A stretch of DNA of 64,000 bases, taken from NCBI RefSeq assembly GCF_053078305.1, contig NZ_CP166879.1, one strand, 5' to 3'. Below are positions 1-8,584 of the stretch, piece by piece. Under the pieces are notes generated by a model. It was not told the origin of the DNA. It worked only from the letters and a program-made list of their open reading frames with translations, and did not search any database. The translations under genes were made by a program, and so were the position numbers. The stretch's first letter is position 1. Every line of letters begins with the position of its first letter.

Positions 1-2325
1 CTGATTGGCGGTGTGCCCGCGATCTTTCAGCCATGCGTTCAGGCAGACGCGGGTTGCCCGCAGTGCTTCACCCTCAGGCCAGCCGGTGATACCCAGACGG
101 GTTGCCAGTTCACCCGCCATCGCCACCAGTGCAAAGCGATTCACAGCCCGGCCCACCTGGTTGCCTGCATCTTTCGGAGTCAGGGCGGCAGCATATTCCT
201 TCATCAGCGATTTTGCCTGTGCCGTTAGTCCGTTAAGATCAGCGGTCAGTGCTTTCAGCCACTCCCGGAACGGCGAACCGTAGTAGCAGGACGTGGCCCA
301 TTCAAGATGCTCTGCCAGAGCCTTGCCGCTGTCGAAGCCGTGCAGCTCCTCAAAAACGCCAAACTTCCCGGAATCGCTGGGGATCTGGATCATCCTGACT
401 TCCATCCCGGCAAAAGTACGCTCACCGGCCTTTGCCGCATGTTCGGTCAGAGATAACTCGCCAGTTGAAAAGAACAACAGGCGCCACTGCTTACGGGTAC
501 GCAGCTCACCGTCCGTACCGGCACGACCCTTGCCCTGACCGTTTGCCAGCATGTAGGCGATACTGCCTGCCTCGCGTCCGTCAACTTCCCGGATCTCATC
601 AAGCATCATGGCGGCATCGTTGCGGCGGCTGGCGCATCCCTCCAGCGCGTTGCCGGTGGCCCGCCATGTCTGCCAGTAGTCAGGCCCGCCGCAGACGGAG
701 GTTGCCGCTTTCATGGTGGTGGTCTTACCGTCTGTCGATTCCCCTTTGAGGTGGTAGCCGCCGCCGTCCATACCAACCAGCCGTAACAGTGGTGCAGCAA
801 AGGCCAGGCTGACAGCAAATGCCACGCGGGAGTTGCCGGTACAGTAGCGGGATACGTTCTCCCGCCATTCCTCTGTTGTACCCGACACGCGGAAATCACG
901 CCCCTGCACGGAAGTGGTCTGGAGAATGACACCCTCTGCACCTTCACCGCTGACCTCATCCTGCAGGACGTAAACCTGACCATGCCAGCCAGTACGGCTG
1001 ACGCAGGTCACGCGGCGTTCCGGTTTACACAGTGAGATATATTCCATCAGGCGTGCGCGTGCCTCACCGGTGGTGCTGATATAAGACAGCCCGTTAACCA
1101 GCAGTACCCGGCGCAGTTCCTCACCACTGCCGCTCAGCATTTCCATCGGCATCGCCCAGCGGCGACGCTCACCCCATGTATCTTCCCATTCCAGCAGTCG
1201 TCCGAAGTTACCGCCATCGGCATCGCAGGTGATTGCCGTAACGCGCAGCGGGCTGCATATTTTGACGTTCTGGATCTCCGTCTCACCGTTGCGCTGTACC
1301 TGCTTTTCATACCAGAGATATTCCTGGGTAAGACGGAACCCGTGCGGCAGTTGCGTGCGGCCTTCCCCGCACAGTACCAGACCGTTGCGAAAGACTTCAC
1401 GGGCACGGGTAATACCGTGCTCCCGATGAAAGTCATTCCAGTCAGCCTTAATCTCTCCTGGTGGCAGCGTCATCCAGCCGCCAACAGCTTTTGCCGCCCG
1501 TTCAGCAAAGGCTCTGCCGGGATTCTCCCCCCCGTCCTGAAAATCGTTATCACCGGCGATGATAATTTTTACCTCAGGCCAGCGTGCCCGCAGCGACTGC
1601 GCCACATTGGGCAGGTTGCCCGCAGATATGGCAGCCACTACGCATCCGGCAGTGAGCTGGCTTACCGTCAGCGCCGTAGCGTAACCTTCGGTAATCACCA
1701 CCTGTACCGGTGGTTCAGACGGTAACGGGCTGAGCGACACAAACGCGCCTTTCATCGTGCTGCCGGGCAGTATGCTTTTTTCACCCGTCGGGGCGATAAG
1801 CTGTGCACCGGTCACGGCTCCGGTGTTGGTCGTGAGTGGTAACAGCAGAGAACCGGCAGGAAAATCCTTACCGCTGATATGCTGCACGCTTCCGGTCAGA
1901 GAGGCTGGGTATCCGGCGAACCCTTTTCCTGTCAGATAGGCGCTTTCTCCCGTGTGGCTCTCTTTCATCAGCGCCGCCACGGTAAGACCCATGTCGCGTT
2001 TAGGGGCTTTTTGTCTGGCAGGCTTAACAGGCAGTTCCTGCACATCCGGCACATTAAGCATCTGCGCCACCTCCTGCGCAGCCTTTCTGACGCTGTAACC
2101 GGTTACGAGCTTAACCAGATCCAGACCGTCACCATTGCCACACTGGCTGCAGATCCACGTCCCGCGCCCGTCAAGGTCATCAAGGCGAAAACGATCCTTG
2201 CCCCCACATTTCGGGCAGGGACCGTGCCTGCCGTTTTCAGGTACATCAATACGCAGCATCTGCAGAATAACGGGCCATTTCCCCCGCGCGGCGGCTGAAA
2301 TCTGCGTAACCGTCTGTATTGTCAT
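1..2325 (-). CDS. P4 alpha-like DNA primase-helicase (zinc-ribbon, Toprim and P-loop NTPase regions); 3' end runs off the window
   Basis: Hand translation of the minus strand from ATG at 2325 stays open to position 1 (about 775 codons). N-terminus has CPKCGG...CSQCG zinc-ribbon spacing, an internal IIAGDNDF Toprim-like acidic motif and a GESTDGKTT P-loop. Absent from the ORF track because it leaves the window. Start overlaps the upstream stop as ATGA. Confidence 0.8.
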   Translation of the reverse strand, partial: MTIQTVTQISAAARGKWPVILQMLRIDVPENGRHGPCPKCGGKDRFRLDDLDGRGTWICSQCGNGDGLDLVKLVTGYSVRKAAQEVAQMLNVPDVQELPVKPARQKAPKRDMGLTVAALMKESHTGESAYLTGKGFAGYPASLTGSVQHISGKDFPAGSLLLPLTTNTGAVTGAQLIAPTGEKSILPGSTMKGAFVSLSPLPSEPPVQVVITEGYATALTVSQLTAGCVVAAISAGNLPNVAQSLRARWPEVKIIIAGDNDFQDGGENPGRAFAERAAKAVGGWMTLPPGEIKADWNDFHREHGITRAREVFRNGLVLCGEGRTQLPHGFRLTQEYLWYEKQVQRNGETEIQNVKICSPLRVTAITCDADGGNFGRLLEWEDTWGERRRWAMPMEMLSGSGEELRRVLLVNGLSYISTTGEARARLMEYISLCKPERRVTCVSRTGWHGQVYVLQDEVSGEGAEGVILQTTSVQGRDFRVSGTTEEWRENVSRYCTGNSRVAFAVSLAFAAPLLRLVGMDGGGYHLKGESTDGKTTTMKAATSVCGGPDYWQTWRATGNALEGCASRRNDAAMMLDEIREVDGREAGSIAYMLANGQGKGRAGTDGELRTRKQWRLLFFSTGELSLTEHAAKAGERTFAGMEVRMIQIPSDSGKFGVFEELHGFDSGKALAEHLEWATSCYYGSPFREWLKALTADLNGLTAQAKSLMKEYAAALTPKDAGNQVGRAVNRFALVAMAGELATRLGITGWPEGEALRATRVCLNAWLKDRGHTANQ

Positions 2326-2705
2326 ACTTCCCCCTGATACAACGTCACACCGGTACTGCAGAAGTCATCAAAGGCCGCCGGAAGCGTGCGGTACATCTCC
2401 GCCATCACTTCACAGCCGCGCGCGGTCAGTACCGGCGGCGCGGTCAGCAGTGACGGCTCCAGCATGTCAGTCAGCAGTGCCAGCGCGGCAGCGGCGCCCT
2501 GTGCTTCGCCGTACTCGTTAATCAGTGCGCACTCGATATGCAGCGCAATGGCCATTTCAATACGCTCCACCGTCAGGCTGTGCGGACCATACTGATCACT
2601 GCCAGTTTCGTTCAGCATTTTCTGCCGCCATGCTGAAGCAATAGCCCGTCGGTAAAGCGCGGTGGTCATTTCTGCCGGGAAAATGGAAACCTGCGGCTGG
2701 TTCAT
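2322..2705 (-). CDS. hypothetical protein (127 aa), island operon member
   Basis: ORF with GGAGGTG Shine-Dalgarno immediately upstream of ATG at 2705; stop overlaps the primase ATG (ATGA coupling). Confidence 0.6.
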   Translation of the reverse strand: MNQPQVSIFPAEMTTALYRRAIASAWRQKMLNETGSDQYGPHSLTVERIEMAIALHIECALINEYGEAQGAAAALALLTDMLEPSLLTAPPVLTARGCEVMAEMYRTLPAAFDDFCSTGVTLYQGEV

Positions 2706-2986
2706 CTGGCACCTCCTTCAATCAGTGCGCAGCTGTGTGCAATATCCGTCAAATCTGCCCGCAGGTACTCCATCAGCGCGGCGACACCAGGCGCACAGCC
2801 TGCGTCCAGTGCTCCGGCCTGAGACGGGTATTCAGAAAAGAGAAGCTGGAGCATGTCGCAGGCATTTCTTGCGCGGATCAGCTTTCCGAAACCGTCCTCT
2901 GACAACCCATAGGCAAAAGCACCGGTATTGTGTTTTTCAGGCAAAGTGTGGCCCTGAGCACCGTTGTGCCCGTTTGAAATATTCAT
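2702..2986 (-). CDS. hypothetical protein (94 aa), island operon member
   Basis: ORF with GGAG Shine-Dalgarno upstream of ATG at 2986; stop overlaps the next gene start (2702-2705). Confidence 0.55.
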   Translation of the reverse strand: MNISNGHNGAQGHTLPEKHNTGAFAYGLSEDGFGKLIRARNACDMLQLLFSEYPSQAGALDAGCAPGVAALMEYLRADLTDIAHSCALIEGGAR

Positions 2987-3017
2987 CGTGAATTACTCCG
3001 TTTTCAGCGGTATTTTG

Positions 3018-3377
3018 TCAGAGAAACTTTGAATAGTGACCGTCGTCAGGCTCAGCAGAACGCCGTATGGTACGCTCCCGCCAGCGGATAAATAGCACAG
3101 ACGGATGCAGTGTCAGCGGGCCGGAACCACTACTGCCTGCAGGAGCTGGTGCAGGCTTAAAGAGCGGTACATCAAACAGGCGCGTATACCGCTGTTCAAA
3201 CCATGCCAGAGGGCAGGAAGAAAGCTGGTTGTCGCTGTCATGACGTATCAGCACTTCACAGCTGAATTCAGGATTAACCAGCGCCACAGAGGGCGAGGCT
3301 TCTATTAATCGGATAATCGTGACCGTCCAGCCACGTTCATGCCGCCAGCGTTCGCCGGGGTGCGGATAATTACGCAT
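3018..3377 (-). CDS. hypothetical protein (about 119 aa), island operon member
   Basis: Track ORF 3018..3407 begins on a non-ATG codon; an in-frame ATG at 3377 is preceded by GGAGGTGA, so the shorter start is preferred. Confidence 0.5.
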   Translation of the reverse strand: MRNYPHPGERWRHERGWTVTIIRLIEASPSVALVNPEFSCEVLIRHDSDNQLSSCPLAWFEQRYTRLFDVPLFKPAPAPAGSSGSGPLTLHPSVLFIRWRERTIRRSAEPDDGHYSKFL

Positions 3378-3546
3378 GTTCACCTCCGCAGGGAATGCGC
3401 CCGGCAAAGCTCAGTACACAGTCCGGGGCAAGTCTGCGCCGCGCTGACCGCTCATTATCTGCGGTGAGCCTTAACATCACAGGACGGGCATTGCGTTGAC
3501 TGCGGTTGATCGCCGCAAATAACCAGGTACACTTCTGTTTAGCCAT
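3370..3546 (-). CDS. small hypothetical protein (58 aa), first gene of the operon leading to the primase
   Basis: ATG at 3546 preceded by GAGG at good spacing; it is the C-terminal part of the track's 244-aa ORF 3370..4104, whose upstream portion looks non-coding. Confidence 0.35.
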   Translation of the reverse strand: MAKQKCTWLFAAINRSQRNARPVMLRLTADNERSARRRLAPDCVLSFAGRIPCGGEHA

Positions 3547-3621
3547 CTTCGTTACCTCATATAGCGGATTGGTCAGAAGCCCGGTTAGTGTTGCTGCACT
3601 GTCGGGCTTCGCACTCACAAG

Positions 3622-3713
3622 GTGAATCGCACCTTTAATTTTAAAGCTACCCTTAAGTGAATCGCACTTCAAGCTTTTTATTATCATTTTTTTTGCGTAT
3701 ACTGAATCGCACC
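3622..3713. promoter_or_regulatory. three direct repeats of TGAATCGCAC(C/T) in a divergent promoter region (candidate operator sites)
   Basis: Copies read directly at 3622-3633, 3657-3668 and 3702-3713, between the minus-strand operon start (3546) and the plus-strand small gene (3734). Confidence 0.5.
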
Positions 3714-3733
3714 TAACGCGAGGAGATCCAGTA

Positions 3734-3919
3734 ATGGCAACGAGTTCAACTAACAACAAGTCGCAGCAACTTAATGCTCGTTTCCCACATGATGTAGTTG
3801 CAGAATTAGAAAGCAACCTTGAAGATGGAGAAACGAAAGCGCAATTCATTGTTACTGCTGTAAAAGGCGAGATTAAACGCCGACAGCGCAGGAAAAATAA
3901 GCCAGAGCAAGGAAGTTGA
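3734..3919 (+). CDS. small basic protein (61 aa), possible ribbon-helix-helix-type DNA-binding regulator
   Basis: ATG at 3734 preceded by AGGAG; lysine/arginine-rich C-terminus; rho-independent terminator downstream. DNA-binding role is inferred. Confidence 0.55.
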   Translation: MATSSTNNKSQQLNARFPHDVVAELESNLEDGETKAQFIVTAVKGEIKRRQRRKNKPEQGS

Positions 3920-3982
3920 ATAGAGAAGCCAACAGACGTTCTCTCTGGTCCCATGTTAATTTCAGTAAGCGACAATATTTTT

Positions 3983-4016
3983 AAGCCCACAAATTCATTA
4001 TGTCGGGCTTTTTTAT
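3983..4016 (+). terminator. rho-independent terminator downstream of the 61-aa gene
   Basis: GC stem (aagccc...gggctt) followed by a T-run at 4009-4015. Confidence 0.5.
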
Positions 4017-4030
4017 TAGTGATTTTCATA

Positions 4031-4246
4031 TCACTCACCACGAGAGGCATATATTTGCTCTTGAATCCAGTGATCAACTTCGCTTTCAACGAATGAAATT
4101 GCACGAGTTCCTATTTTCACCGGACGGGGAAATGTATTGTTTGCAAGCTGTTTGTAAAGCCATGCCTTGCTACGCTGAACGCGTCTTAATACCTCTTTTG
4201 CTGAGATAAGAGTCTGATTATCTGAAAAGCTGTTTGCATATTCCAT
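4031..4246 (-). CDS. alpA: AlpA-family phage transcriptional regulator / excisionase-like protein (71 aa)
   Basis: Size and sequence character match AlpA-type regulators of P4-like islands; ATG at 4246 preceded by GGAG. Track ORF starts earlier at 4291. Confidence 0.7.
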   Translation of the reverse strand: MEYANSFSDNQTLISAKEVLRRVQRSKAWLYKQLANNTFPRPVKIGTRAISFVESEVDHWIQEQIYASRGE

Positions 4247-4530
4247 CTTGTTACTCCGTGTTCTACTTAAGTTCACGGTGACTTTAAACACTGGGAAAAA
4301 GTGATTCTAGTGATAATGGAATCTATTAAGACAAACATTGATTCTATTGAAAAACAATAATCTCCACTGAAAAAAAGAAGTAATATTCATATGAAAGAAC
4401 ACGGAAAGAAGGAAATGCACAAAACAATAAAATTAATAAAATTCATATAGATAGGATGGAAAATCAAAAAATCATACGTCAAAAGGTATTATTACATTTT
4501 AACGATTCATATTACCTAGGAATTAGCACA

Positions 4531-4560
4531 GTATTACACCGTATTACATCGTATTACCCC
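4531..4560. repeat. three perfect tandem 10-bp repeats GTATTACNNC
   Basis: gtattacacc / gtattacatc / gtattacccc read directly in the AT-rich intergenic region between the 212-aa gene and alpA. Confidence 0.6.
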
Positions 4561-4622: not shown

Positions 4623-5261
4623 TCACTCTCCGTATTTTATAATGTCTTTCCCCAGCTTTATTTTCTTATAAAACGTAGCTTTTTTAATCCCTTTCATTAG
4701 AATCTCATTCTCATTACAAAAAGAAACAATATCATTATATATAACACTATTATCGCTATAACTTACCTTTCCATGTCTCTTAAGCAATTCAATTAGTAAA
4801 TAAATTAATTTACAACTATAATTATCCTCATCATCTTTTCTGTACTGCCCTCTACCATTACTCCTTAATTTTTTACCAACTTCACATAATTCACTTCCTC
4901 CTAACGTCATTAGAATATCGCTCCAATCTTTATTTTTTACCTGTTGTCGTAATGCGTTCTCAATTCTCTCCTTAATCTCCACAGGTACAATACCTTCCCT
5001 CTGAAAGATATAAGCAGCAGTTAATAATAAGTTCGCCTCCACTTTTTGCGTGGCGGATACGTTTTTATATTCATTAATTAATTGTAGATTTCTGGTTATT
5101 GCCTTTCTTAATCTAATAACCTCTTTTAATTGAACCTCAGTCAATTCATCATTTTCGGTATCATAGTCAAAACCATTCATAGCAAGCGCCACTTCGTGTG
5201 GCGTTATGTAAGTTAACCTATTAAAATAAAACAAATTATTATCAAATTGAGTATTGTTCAT
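4623..5261 (-). CDS. hypothetical protein (212 aa), AT-rich orphan cargo gene immediately downstream of the integrase
   Basis: ATG at 5261 preceded by GGAGAG; clean ORF; visibly AT-rich and rich in K/N/I/E codons compared with flanking core genes; no motif I can recognise. Confidence 0.7.
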   Translation of the reverse strand: MNNTQFDNNLFYFNRLTYITPHEVALAMNGFDYDTENDELTEVQLKEVIRLRKAITRNLQLINEYKNVSATQKVEANLLLTAAYIFQREGIVPVEIKERIENALRQQVKNKDWSDILMTLGGSELCEVGKKLRSNGRGQYRKDDEDNYSCKLIYLLIELLKRHGKVSYSDNSVIYNDIVSFCNENEILMKGIKKATFYKKIKLGKDIIKYGE

Positions 5262-5290: not shown

Positions 5291-6574
5291 TTATTTTCCA
5301 TGCATACGCGCAAAATCATATGGTGTGATAGATCCATTCTTATTAGCATCAATATAATCAGCCCACCATTGCAACATTAATCTTCTTTCTTCAAGATATT
5401 CGGAAGTATGCATATATGAACCTTTCACGTTTTTTCGTTCAACGTGGCTTAACTGTCTTTCAATGGCATCATCATTCCATAGTTTCGACTCACTTAGCGC
5501 ACCACGCGCCATAGTTCTAAACCCATGACCACATACTTCAGTTTTCGTATCATATCCCATTACACGTAAGGCGTTATTTACTGTATTTTCACTCATTACT
5601 TTTTTAGGATCATGATCGCTGGGAAATATAACCTCACCTTTACCACTCAAGGCATGTAAACGTTTAAAAATATCAAATGCTTGTTTGCTAAGCGGAACAA
5701 TATGTTCAGTTTTCATCTTCATCCCACGCTCAGAGTGTTTTACGCCGGGAATAGGCTTACGAATTCCGGGTATTGTCCACTCGCTTCGTTCAAAGTTAAC
5801 CTCACTCCAGCGAGCAAAACGCATCTCACTTGAACGTATAAATGTGAGTAGCGTTAATTCAACGGCAAGCCGTGTCATTAGTCGCCCTTTATAGCGTGAT
5901 AGTCTTTCAAGAAGCTCAGGAATTCTTTTTGGGGGTAGTGCTGGGTGGTGGGTTGCTTTAACGCTTAAAAGCGCTCCAGCCATATCGCATGCAGGATTTG
6001 ATTCAAGCAGGTCATTCTGCACACCAAAACGCATAATTGCGGTTACGCGCTGCATCAGTCGCTGCGCGACATCATGTTTACCTGCCGTATCGACAGCTTT
6101 GATTGGATTGAGAAGCTGGCTGGTTCTCAACGTTCTGGCATCGATTTGACCTATCGAGGGGAAAATATACTGCTCAAGTGTCAGCAGAACACGACGGCTA
6201 TGATCTTCGCTCCAAGTAAGGTTACTTGCGTGCCATTGCCTTGCGATAGTTTCAAATAAATATGCCCCCTCAATTTCAGCTTGTGCCCCCTTTTGCTCAG
6301 CTTTGGGGTCAATACCCTGAGACAACAATTTCTTTGCTGCATCGCGCTTACCCCGCGCTTCAGCCAAAGTGACAGTCGGGTATACACCAAAAGCGAGTCG
6401 ATCTTCCTTTTTGTCAGAGGGGCGGCGATATTTCATGCGCCAGTACTTAGAACCTTTAGGGGAGACCTCAAGATACAAGCCGCCTCCATCAGCCATTTTA
6501 TAAGCTTTCTCTTTCGGCTTTGCGGTCTCTATCTGGCGAGCGTTGAGTTTCATTTTGGGGGCACAAATCCTCAT
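5291..6574 (-). CDS. P4-type tyrosine integrase (site-specific recombinase)
   Basis: 427-aa ORF adjacent to the tRNA 3' end; sequence character matches P4-family integrases. True start may be the internal Met at 6553. Confidence 0.85.
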   Translation of the reverse strand: MRICAPKMKLNARQIETAKPKEKAYKMADGGGLYLEVSPKGSKYWRMKYRRPSDKKEDRLAFGVYPTVTLAEARGKRDAAKKLLSQGIDPKAEQKGAQAEIEGAYLFETIARQWHASNLTWSEDHSRRVLLTLEQYIFPSIGQIDARTLRTSQLLNPIKAVDTAGKHDVAQRLMQRVTAIMRFGVQNDLLESNPACDMAGALLSVKATHHPALPPKRIPELLERLSRYKGRLMTRLAVELTLLTFIRSSEMRFARWSEVNFERSEWTIPGIRKPIPGVKHSERGMKMKTEHIVPLSKQAFDIFKRLHALSGKGEVIFPSDHDPKKVMSENTVNNALRVMGYDTKTEVCGHGFRTMARGALSESKLWNDDAIERQLSHVERKNVKGSYMHTSEYLEERRLMLQWWADYIDANKNGSITPYDFARMHGK

Positions 6575-6717: not shown

Positions 6718-6802
6718 TGGTGCCGAAGGCCGGACTCGAACCGGCACGTATTTCTACGGTTGATTTTGAATCAACTGCGTCTACCGATTTCGCCACTTCG
6801 GC
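6718..6802 (-). tRNA. leuX: tRNA-Leu (anticodon CAA)
   Basis: Reverse complement reads GCCGAAGTGGCGAAATCGGTAGACGCAGTTGATTCAAAATCAACCGTAGAAATACGTGCCGGTTCGAGTCCGGCCTTCGGCACCA, with the CCA end facing the integrase. Confidence 0.95.
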
Positions 6803-8020: not shown

Positions 8021-8584
8021 TCATTCGCAGCGCTGATCTGAGGCGCTGCCCTCTTTCGCACATATTCTGTTTTGTCGTATCGCCAGCACAGCCTGCCGAC
8101 ATTGTTCGGTGACATTGGCAATATCATGGTTGATATCAATGCGCACAATATCCTGTTCATCTGCTTGTGGACGCTCCAGCGCCTCAAACTGACTTTTTAG
8201 TAACGCTACCGGCATAAAATGCCCAGCCCGACGCTGCATTCGCGCGAGGATAGTTTCATAGTCGCCATCTAACCAGAGGAAATGAACATGGGGGCTACCC
8301 TTGCGTAAAATATCACGATACTGTTTTTTTAATGATGAACAGACAATAAATCCTGTTTCATTCTTTTTATAAAGACTGTATGAAGCATCATTTAAGCGTT
8401 CCAGCCAGGGAAGTCGATCTTCATCAGATAATGGAATACCCTGCGACATTTTATCTATATTTTTGGCTGGATGAAGATCGTCACCATCAATAAATTTAGC
8501 AGATAATAACGCGGCAACCTTGCTACCAATTAATGTTTTACCACTCCCTGAAACGCCCATCAAAATAAAGCTTTCACCCGCCAT
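8021..8584 (-). CDS. idnK: gluconokinase (thermosensitive, idonate pathway)
   Basis: 187 aa with GVSGSGKT P-loop; position in the idn cluster. Confidence 0.93.
   Translation of the reverse strand: MAGESFILMGVSGSGKTLIGSKVAALLSAKFIDGDDLHPAKNIDKMSQGIPLSDEDRLPWLERLNDASYSLYKKNETGFIVCSSLKKQYRDILRKGSPHVHFLWLDGDYETILARMQRRAGHFMPVALLKSQFEALERPQADEQDIVRIDINHDIANVTEQCRQAVLAIRQNRICAKEGSASDQRCE

Follow-up and report, generated by a model that had tools for sequence, protein, structure and literature searches.

The early genes of a leuX satellite island compared with the P4 left operon: four small frames, a proposed repressor and a predicted antisense RNA

Introduction

The left operon of satellite phage P4 carries the genes in the order eta/kil - epsilon - orf151 - cnr - alpha and is under CI RNA immunity. 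In the immI region of phages P1 and P7, the c4 RNA gene is followed by icd and the anti-repressor genes ant1/2. Both the P1 c4-icd-ant system (PMC8198154) and the P4 CI RNA (PMC4825925) act via translation of icd or kil, respectively, and via termination. In P4-like elements, the commonest gene family between epsilon and alpha occurs in 90% of these elements and has among its members cnr, which controls P4 plasmid copy number (PMC8628076). Induction of the phage-inducible chromosomal islands (PICIs) of Gram-negative bacteria needs alpA, which the helper activates (bioRxiv 10.1101/2022.09.08.507074). A large proportion of enterobacterial genomes harbours P4-like satellites and PICIs, whose cargo serves anti-phage defence and whose silencing and switching are poorly known outside P4. 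Here, we analyze four small open reading frames (ORFs) at positions 2322-3546 of the minus strand, upstream of a primase-helicase gene, and their flanking control region, in a 64,000-nt stretch (the window) of contig NZ_CP166879.1 (assembly GCF_053078305.1).

The four ORFs probably constitute the early (replication-control) operon of a P4-family satellite integrated at leuX. On the basis of protein comparisons all four have P4 counterparts, two of them secure and two remote, with the order of the middle pair swapped. The genes are already annotated and two of them belong to named families, so that the operon is a member of the P4 early-operon kind. Control of the operon is proposed to differ from that of P4.

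Results

Four closely spaced frames lead into the primase-helicase gene

The first gene, ORF1 (3370-3546, minus strand, 58 aa, ATG at 3546), encodes an Icd-like or P4 Kil-like protein. It is followed on the same strand by ORF2 (3018-3377, 119 aa, ATG at 3377; orf151-like), ORF3 (2702-2986, 94 aa; a remotely epsilon-like protein of the helper derepression family, with a helical hairpin) and ORF4 (2322-2705, 127 aa; a DUF5375 protein, homologue of P4 ORF106, the copy-number regulator cnr). The primase-helicase gene (1-2325, minus strand) begins with the ATG at 2325 and is cut at the window edge after the first 775 of its 890 aa. ORF1 and ORF2 overlap by 8 nt (ATGCGTAA, 3370-3377), ORF2 and ORF3 are separated by a 31-nt gap, and ATGA overlaps join ORF3 to ORF4 (2702-2705) and ORF4 to the primase gene (2322-2325). 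A first, sequence-only reading had described four minus-strand ORFs of these lengths, each with a Shine-Dalgarno (SD) sequence, and two ATGA overlaps. The ORFs and both overlaps were found in place, but the count of overlaps was incomplete, because the 8-nt overlap had gone unmentioned.

The energies of SD pairing to the 16S 3' end were -6.9 (ORF1), -10.8, -6.1, -13.0 and -9.4 kcal/mol at the five starts. The mean at 6200 background positions of the same strand was -2.5 kcal/mol, with 13% of positions at -6 or lower, and five of five starts with such energies are expected by chance with a probability of ~4e-5. The overlaps or short gaps, together with SD sites placed inside the upstream ORF, suggest by their geometry that translation of the genes is coupled. 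In NZ_CP100544 (L001), which carries a 99.9% identical island and from which we read the part of the island outside the window, PGAP annotates the same four coding sequences with the same starts. Near-identical copies of the island are present in 332 of 5426 complete E. coli genomes (~6%).

We found 73 proteins homologous to ORF3 and 36 homologous to ORF2, distributed over Escherichia, Salmonella, Klebsiella, Enterobacter, Citrobacter, Raoultella, Serratia, Pantoea and Erwinia. The comparison loci included islands of Erwinia, Pantoea, Citrobacter (L007), Enterobacter and Raoultella, with P4 (L002) and two capsid-forming PICIs (cf-PICIs; L050 and L051). In the Erwinia, Pantoea, Enterobacter and Raoultella loci the order is int - unknown - alpA-like - small opposite-strand ORF - four ORFs - primase - Sid/Psu - delta - variable cargo, and the four ORFs measure 58/59, 118/119, 93/94 and 125/127 aa. 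The 8-nt overlap and the first of the 4-nt overlaps are retained in related loci. Pairwise ratios of nonsynonymous to synonymous substitution rates (dN/dS) were 0.07-0.19 for ORF1, 0.14-0.34 for ORF2, 0.11-0.51 for ORF3 and 0.08-0.20 for ORF4, which points to purifying selection on all four from E. coli to Erwinia and Pantoea. The sequence-only reading had named a lack of conservation across related islands as the result that would speak against it; instead the frames are kept across genera, with dN/dS of 0.07-0.5.

These values also bear on the view that a defective island has left the ORFs behind as decaying remnants without further expression. Degradation affects many leuX islands, and frameshifts occur in some of the database homologues, as this view would predict. 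Intact frames, SD sites and overlaps recur in many genera, however, dN/dS is well below 1 and the full island holds a complete satellite gene set, so that we consider decay highly improbable.

Two alternative frames offered by a six-frame translation were rejected. The TTG start at 3407 has a poor SD energy (-3.2 kcal/mol) and is an artefact. The 244-aa fused ORF (3370-4104, minus strand), which would start at the GTG at 4104, also has a poor SD energy (-4.2 kcal/mol). It shares the reading frame of ORF1 and stays open as far as the alpA end, where an ATG lies one base past the alpA stop, and in this it recalls the nesting of eta and kil in P4. As a nested gene of the eta type it was rejected, because it crosses, in antisense, a gene (3734-3919) on which purifying selection is strong. 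It is open (247-248 codons) in two leader types and closed in six others, and it evolves roughly neutrally (hand count, window vs. L007). Given its antisense position, its closure in most related leader types and its near-neutral evolution, the 244-aa frame is probably not a gene. The sequence-only reading had warned that the six-frame track misrepresents the operon at both sites, and the poor SD energies and the gene on the opposite strand bear this out.

ORF1 and ORF4 have secure P4 counterparts, ORF2 and ORF3 remote ones

The four ORFs had been called unknown. This does not apply to ORF1 and ORF4, which fall in named families, and it applies to ORF2 and ORF3 in so far as these have only remote relatives; the profile searches that the sequence-only reading had proposed returned matches to P4 counterparts for all four.

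ORF1 matched the Icd-like profile NF033153 with 81 bits (cutoff 25, E = 4.7e-23), residues 6-52 covering profile positions 1-47 of 48, and the P4 kil region matched the same profile with 73.9 bits. ORF1 aligns with residues 86-131 of the P4 'cI ORF' (8168-8584) at 52% identity. The final 65 codons of that frame begin MATT... and have a GGAGG site in front; we take them to be P4 kil, the first translated gene after PLE. The upstream part of the P4 frame is a Phage_ASH domain, and ORF1 has no such part. By profile and pairwise comparison, ORF1 is an Icd-like protein, the equivalent of P4 Kil.

ORF4 matched PF17345 (DUF5375) with 50.9 bits (gathering score 30) and P4 ORF106 with 40% identity (BLASTP, E = 8e-17); P4 ORF106 itself matched PF17345 over its full length with 210.9 bits. 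In five of six related loci a DUF5375 gene lies immediately upstream of the primase gene. ORF4 is, by these similarities, a member of the DUF5375 family, to which P4 ORF106/cnr belongs.

When the middle genes were paired by position, BLASTP gave no alignment of ORF2 with P4 epsilon or of ORF3 with P4 orf151. Links to orf151 and epsilon appeared with profiles only, and with the partners swapped relative to position. The ORF2 profile matched P4 orf151 in hhalign with 81% probability (E = 1.2e-5), residues 1-78 aligning with residues 1-86 over 77 columns, and ORF2 is predicted to have an N-terminal Tudor/SH3-like barrel and a disordered tail. Assignment of ORF2 to DUF4222 (PF13973) was rejected at 17.9 bits (gathering 27) over residues 5-25 only, with an hhalign E of 0.35 against the DUF4222 protein of a cf-PICI.

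ORF3 corresponds to phrog_14861, and in a set of 1.8 billion representative proteins its family, which is tiny, forms 24 clusters at 50% identity. In its AF2 model, helices 30-52 and 62-92 form a helical hairpin. A widened ORF3 profile matched the epsilon family PF25738 ('Derepression') with 77% hhalign probability (E = 2.1e-5) over 56 of ~95 columns; two colinear motifs, LS.E.[FY].KL.RA and YL..D[IL]..V, carry the match. Taken alone, 3 of 24 family members gave weak matches to PF25738 (best E 0.0076), which was nonetheless the top Pfam family among members. A tblastn search of 50,697 phage records with ORF3 gave no match, and sequence searches of the PDB returned no solved relatives of the epsilon family, the ORF3 family or ORF4. 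These profile comparisons indicate that ORF2 and ORF3 are, with good probability, remote relatives of P4 orf151 and epsilon in swapped order.

Alternatively, ORF2 and ORF3 could be lineage-specific accessory genes, for example for helper interference or anti-defence, that are unrelated to orf151 and epsilon and fill a variable slot between the gate gene and cnr. We regard this as possible and less probable than remote kinship. For ORF3 two independent lines speak against it, the profile-profile match at E = 2.1e-5 and the rank of PF25738 among family members; for ORF2, the 77 aligned columns begin at residue 1 of orf151. Also against it, neither protein was found in PADLOC; none of the four ORFs, the YlcI-like protein or the 212-aa protein described below was a known defence protein there.

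A small divergent gene and three repeats surround the putative operon promoter

Upstream of ORF1 a divergent gene (3734-3919, plus strand) encodes a 61-aa protein of the YlcI/YnfO family (NF041551, 65.7 bits, cutoff 30), with a dN/dS of 0.046 relative to the Citrobacter copy. The 187-nt interval between this gene and ORF1 contains three exact copies of an operator-like repeat, TGAATCGCAC (3623-3632, 3658-3667 and 3703-3712), within 92 nt; no further exact copy was found in the 64 kb. A putative operon promoter (3644-3672, minus strand) matches the consensus with a -35 element TTGAAG (3667-3672), a 17-nt spacer and a -10 element TAGCTT (3644-3649). Of the three repeats, the first to be noted falls between the -35 and -10 elements, another just downstream of the promoter, and the third at the beginning of the divergent gene.

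In other islands the same slot is occupied by unrelated proteins of 57-62 aa with ribbon-helix-helix-like patterns, one of which scored 20.8 bits against HicB. Each small-protein type is accompanied by its own repeats (GGTAATTACC, GGTACGTACC, GTGTAATTACAC, GTGTCGGACAC or GTGGGCCACAC), placed in the same way around near-consensus promoters; at the promoter position of loci with other repressor types we found TTGACA-17-TATGAT, TTGACA-18-TAATGT or TTGACA-17-TTTAAT. The YlcI-like gene and the leader move between islands as a unit, with a breakpoint at ~3580-3620. Judged from the sequences compared, repeats that co-vary with the small protein and block exchange are the signature of exchangeable repressor/operator immunity modules, and we propose the YlcI/YnfO-type protein as the repressor of the operon.

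A strong, one-way intrinsic terminator of the YlcI-like gene (3983-4015, plus strand) consists of a hairpin followed by TTTTTT. The minus strand lacks a T-run there, so that alpA transcripts could read through into the operon. This terminator has a 10-mer, TGTCGGGCTT, in common with the hairpin described below (3600-3609). A simple promoter scan with a 9-of-12 rule missed all promoter sites discussed here, because their matches fall below that rule.

The RNA elements of P4 immunity were not recovered. With Rfam models, C4 (RF01695) gave no match in the window at 3300-4350 (E up to 10) or in ten related loci (E up to 5), and isrK and c4-a1b1 were absent from the same regions. In P4, as a positive control, the C4/CI RNA was detected with 74.9 bits, together with isrK and c4-a1b1.

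A conserved structure over the ORF1 start is predicted to be read as an antisense RNA

The segment covering the start codon and SD sequence of ORF1 is predicted to encode a cis-antisense RNA (3539-3645, plus strand). Its first stem-loop carries an anti-SD CCTC (3555-3558) and is followed by a hairpin (3576-3610), a second hairpin (3619-3635) and a T-run (3636-3645). We collected 23 distinct leaders for comparison. A hairpin of 14-16 bp just upstream of the ORF1 SD sequence was present in 23 of 23 leaders in 16 distinct sequences, with a mean energy of -20.9 kcal/mol as plus-strand RNA vs. -15.3 kcal/mol for the other strand, and a T-run follows it on the plus strand in 17 of the 23. The whole segment folds better as plus-strand RNA in every leader. 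In a second helix, the start-codon complement AGCCAU pairs with a conserved UUGGU, leaving the anti-SD in the loop.

A leader alignment made with MAFFT only misaligned two hairpin types, and a covariance model built from 10 sequences was adopted for this reason. It matched the window at 3539-3618 with 101 bits and gave matches in the antisense orientation only, including loci outside the training set (53-72 bits). With filters off, it also recovered the most divergent leader type and two cf-PICIs; nothing was found in P4. In the model alignment, which is fitted to the model and made of related sequences, 92.3% of cells were paired vs. 85.7% in shuffles and 46% or less in slid controls, and the covariation score was 0.257 vs. 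0.150 in shuffles, a value reached by 0 of 500. Ten pairs were changed on both sides. G-U pairs outnumbered A-C pairs by 68 to 10, and this asymmetry is the strongest sign in the alignment of a selected RNA structure read from the plus strand.

A promoter-like site for this RNA lies within the codons of ORF1 (3506-3533, plus strand), with a -35 element TTGATC (3506-3511), a 16-nt spacer and a -10 element TACACT (3528-3533). The site ends 7 nt before the predicted antisense start near 3541. All 23 distinct leaders retain the pattern TTGATY-16-TAnACT, and the synonymous sites beneath it (codons 5, 6, 13 and 14) are invariant, whereas codons 10, 11, 12, 15, 17 and 21-23 vary. In the cf-PICIs (L050, 6700-7320; L051, 6768-7344), a different Icd-like gene with an unrelated N-terminus precedes small ORFs, the gene for a DUF4222 protein and a replicase gene of RepA or primase type. 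An extended -10 element, TGGTATGAT, is found at the equivalent place, and the antisense strand folds with -45.6/-43.7 kcal/mol vs. -33.1/-30.6 kcal/mol.

The hairpin might instead belong to no antisense small RNA at all, and act as a one-way terminator or insulator against stray plus-strand transcription before the repressor promoter, or as an element of the operon 5'-untranslated region. Three observations agree with this: the conservation of the promoter-like site falls within conserved codons; the leader type of the window has no T-run directly after the hairpin, TAATTTT following the second, weaker hairpin (3619-3635); and the hairpin folds on the sense strand too, at -15 kcal/mol. The 68:10 ratio and the energies that favour plus-strand RNA in all leaders argue for a transcript, as do the second conserved helix, with its pairing of anti-start and UUGGU and its looped anti-SD, and the extended -10 element of the cf-PICIs, five bases upstream despite the unrelated Icd N-terminus. 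On balance we find the reading without a small RNA somewhat doubtful, and a cis-antisense RNA of ~70-105 nt is the likely product predicted from the alignment.

The layout resembles that of SymE/SymR, in which a short antisense RNA extends from a few bases inside the ORF over start and SD and has two stem-loops, the second terminator-like. The Rfam symR model (RF01809) matched 3541-3613 with 26.3 bits and one related locus with 24.9 bits (gathering 61). Membership of the SymR family was rejected: the scores are far below gathering, they concern one hairpin type only and the other related loci gave no match. The two are alike in layout and do not belong to one family. SymE has no kinship with Icd-like proteins, and the target here is the first gene of a five-gene operon.

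With such a geometry, ORF1 and the antisense element might instead be the toxin and antitoxin of a type I pair, which would stabilize the island rather than gate the operon. P4 kil is said to be toxic. Toxicity of Icd/Kil-type proteins (PMC11897509), an element that begins a few bases inside the ORF and covers start and SD as SymR does, and the weak symR match are all in keeping with such a pair. So is a viral contig (L024, 3825-3905) in which the Icd-like frame is disrupted and the antisense-type element is intact (64.5 bits). Against it, ORF1 is always the first cistron, with its 8-nt overlap into replication-control genes, and a symR score of 26 bits, in one hairpin type only, is far from the gathering score. 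A toxin-antitoxin pair in place of a gate therefore appears unlikely to us; it is, however, compatible with a gating role.

The operon lies in a P4-like island at leuX

A P4-type integrase gene (5291-6574) is located beside a tRNA-Leu gene (leuX, 6721-6802). Between int and alpA, an AT-rich gene (4623-5261, minus strand) encodes a 212-aa protein (phrog_30524); related islands carry proteins of other sizes there (237-313 aa), and this position may therefore be a second variable slot. The alpA gene (4031-4246, minus strand; PF05930, 45.1 bits), annotated as of the AlpA family, encodes an AlpA/Vis-type regulator and lies upstream of the operon in the same orientation. Three exact GTATTAC repeats with a 10-nt phase (4531-4557, plus strand) lie in the AT-rich spacer that separates the 212-aa gene from alpA, none being expected by chance; they are candidate binding sites for AlpA or for the integrase (arm type).

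In NZ_CP100544, genes for two Psu-family (Sid/Psu-like) proteins and an Ogr/Delta protein come after that of the 890-aa primase. The cargo after delta (L001, 5439-11068) matches two candidate defence systems, PDC-M38 (A+B) and PDC-S11, as well as an HNH nuclease that binds phosphorothioated DNA, and this cargo site is the usual P4-like defence hotspot. The co-localized integrase, Psu, delta, Sid and AlpA by which P4-like elements are recognized (PMC8628076) are all present, integrase and alpA in the window and the others in NZ_CP100544. The presence of Sid/Psu-like proteins and delta and the absence of capsid genes make the element P4-like, and on gene content we class the island, which lies at leuX, as a P4-like satellite prophage.

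Two other markers of PMC8628076 are absent. The 'epsilon' marker PF10554 (Phage_ASH), which in P4 lies within eta/'cI ORF', gave no match in the four ORFs, and the alpha marker PF03288 (Pox_D5) is not in the 890-aa primase. Their absence places the element at the divergent fringe of P4-like elements. The primase contains Zn_Ribbon_Prim, Toprim_3 and DUF927 domains; its N-terminal half agrees with P4 alpha in domain content, and the helicase half is DUF927 vs. D5_N/DUF5906/Pox_D5 in P4. The suggestion in the sequence-only reading that the ORFs take the position of the P4 accessory genes upstream of alpha is upheld, in that counterparts of kil, orf151, epsilon and cnr precede a Zn-ribbon/Toprim primase.

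Discussion

We propose the following course of events for the early operon. In the prophage state, the YlcI/YnfO-type repressor would hold off the operon promoter from its operators, and the antisense RNA would pair with the ribosome-binding site and start codon of ORF1. Upon induction, the operon mRNA would outrun the antisense RNA and ORF1 would be translated. The overlaps would then hand ribosomes on, leading to synthesis of the orf151-like, epsilon-like and Cnr-like proteins and of the primase-helicase. With ORF1 untranslated, the downstream overlapping starts would not be reached, and the naked mRNA would be exposed to termination by Rho, as it is in P4 and P1, giving a polar effect.

Translation of ORF1 would in this scheme open the operon. 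As a Kil/Icd-like protein ORF1 probably blocks cell division when made, and it may delay division as P1 Icd does via FtsZ, to which Icd binds (PMC11897509). ORF3, being epsilon-like, is a likely anti-repressor that would wake the helper prophage. ORF2 would contribute an orf151-like protein with a Tudor/SH3-like barrel. P4 Cnr reportedly exerts negative control of copy number via the initiator protein. ORF4, as a Cnr-like protein, would tune the primase-helicase encoded next to it; an interaction of the Cnr-alpha type is an extrapolation here, because the helicase half of the primase differs from that of P4 alpha.

Several observations weigh against this explanation, in addition to those cited above for a hairpin without a small RNA. 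TTGAAG/TAGCTT is a weak consensus match for the promoter of the immunity type found in the window, and the TGAATCGCAC repeats could be bound by AlpA instead of the YlcI-like protein. The links to orf151 and epsilon are remote, with hhalign probabilities of 77-81% from shallow alignments and a gene order swapped relative to P4. The ORF3 of the window itself gave no match to PF25738 at E up to 10 (gathering 27 bits), and its model is only a generic helical hairpin, for which a BFVD fold search found nothing below E = 1. At the end of the operon the helicase half is unlike that of P4 alpha, and the Citrobacter relative (L007, 8001-8306) has no DUF5375 gene, its 101-aa ORF3 homologue overlapping the primase start directly.

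Comparison with P4 shows a common plan. In both elements the Icd-like first gene (the 65-codon kil in P4) has a stop that overlaps the next start by 8 nt, with junction GTGCGTAAT in P4 (8168-8175) and ATGCGTAAT here (3370-3377). The near-identical junction explains why P4 epsilon and ORF2 both begin MRN though they are not homologous. A shared junction with unrelated next genes suggests, from the two sequences, module exchange right at the coupling point. In both, a cnr/DUF5375 gene directly precedes the Zn-ribbon/Toprim primase gene, alpA/vis lies upstream, and Sid/Psu-like proteins and delta are encoded in the same element. In contrast to P4, the locus lacks C4/CI RNA, isrK, a1b1 and the Phage_ASH (eta) part, the kinship of the two middle genes is remote, and sid-psu-delta follows the primase gene on the same strand rather than diverging from the immunity region.

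The immI region of P1/P7 likewise has an Icd-family first cistron as translational control point, with an anti-repressor gene behind it (PMC8198154), an arrangement that we infer here, and an RNA that pairs with the icd ribosome-binding region (PMC8198154), as predicted here. C4 is processed from the same transcript and pairs through short a/b boxes, whereas the RNA predicted here comes from the opposite strand, is fully complementary to its target and has no match to Rfam C4. Gram-negative PICIs and cf-PICIs have the layout int - alpA - ... - pri/rep. The control cassette recurs in E. coli cf-PICIs, which carry capsid, protease and portal genes: they share alpA, the YlcI/YnfO gene, three TGAATCGCAC-type repeats, the leader, the antisense element and an Icd-like gene. 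They differ in the genes after icd and in the replicase, and the present island has Sid/Psu-like proteins and delta and no capsid genes.

From these comparisons we put forward a portable immunity cassette common to this P4-like branch and the cf-PICIs, in which a tiny ribbon-helix-helix-like repressor, of the YlcI/YnfO family or an unrelated analogue with operators of its own, and a cis-antisense RNA that masks the ribosome-binding site of the Icd/Kil gate gene would replace the C4/CI RNA. We judge the chances for and against this proposal to be about even. No mention of a repressor-plus-antisense cassette was found in the satellite literature searched, and it is absent from Rfam 15.

For the field the gain is incremental and holds no new principle. 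The operon is an ordinary one, and its regulatory variant is of moderate interest. The analysis gives names to four genes that are routinely called 'hypothetical', and it indicates that (i) the P4 early-operon plan of gate gene, anti-repressor, copy-number regulator and primase is kept even in an element without the usual P4-like marker domains; and (ii) silencing may rely on another, testable device that combines a small repressor with an antisense RNA and is shared with cf-PICIs. If true, this would provide a first proposed function for YlcI/YnfO-family proteins, would explain immunity types among satellites and would offer a handle for inducing or locking their islands.

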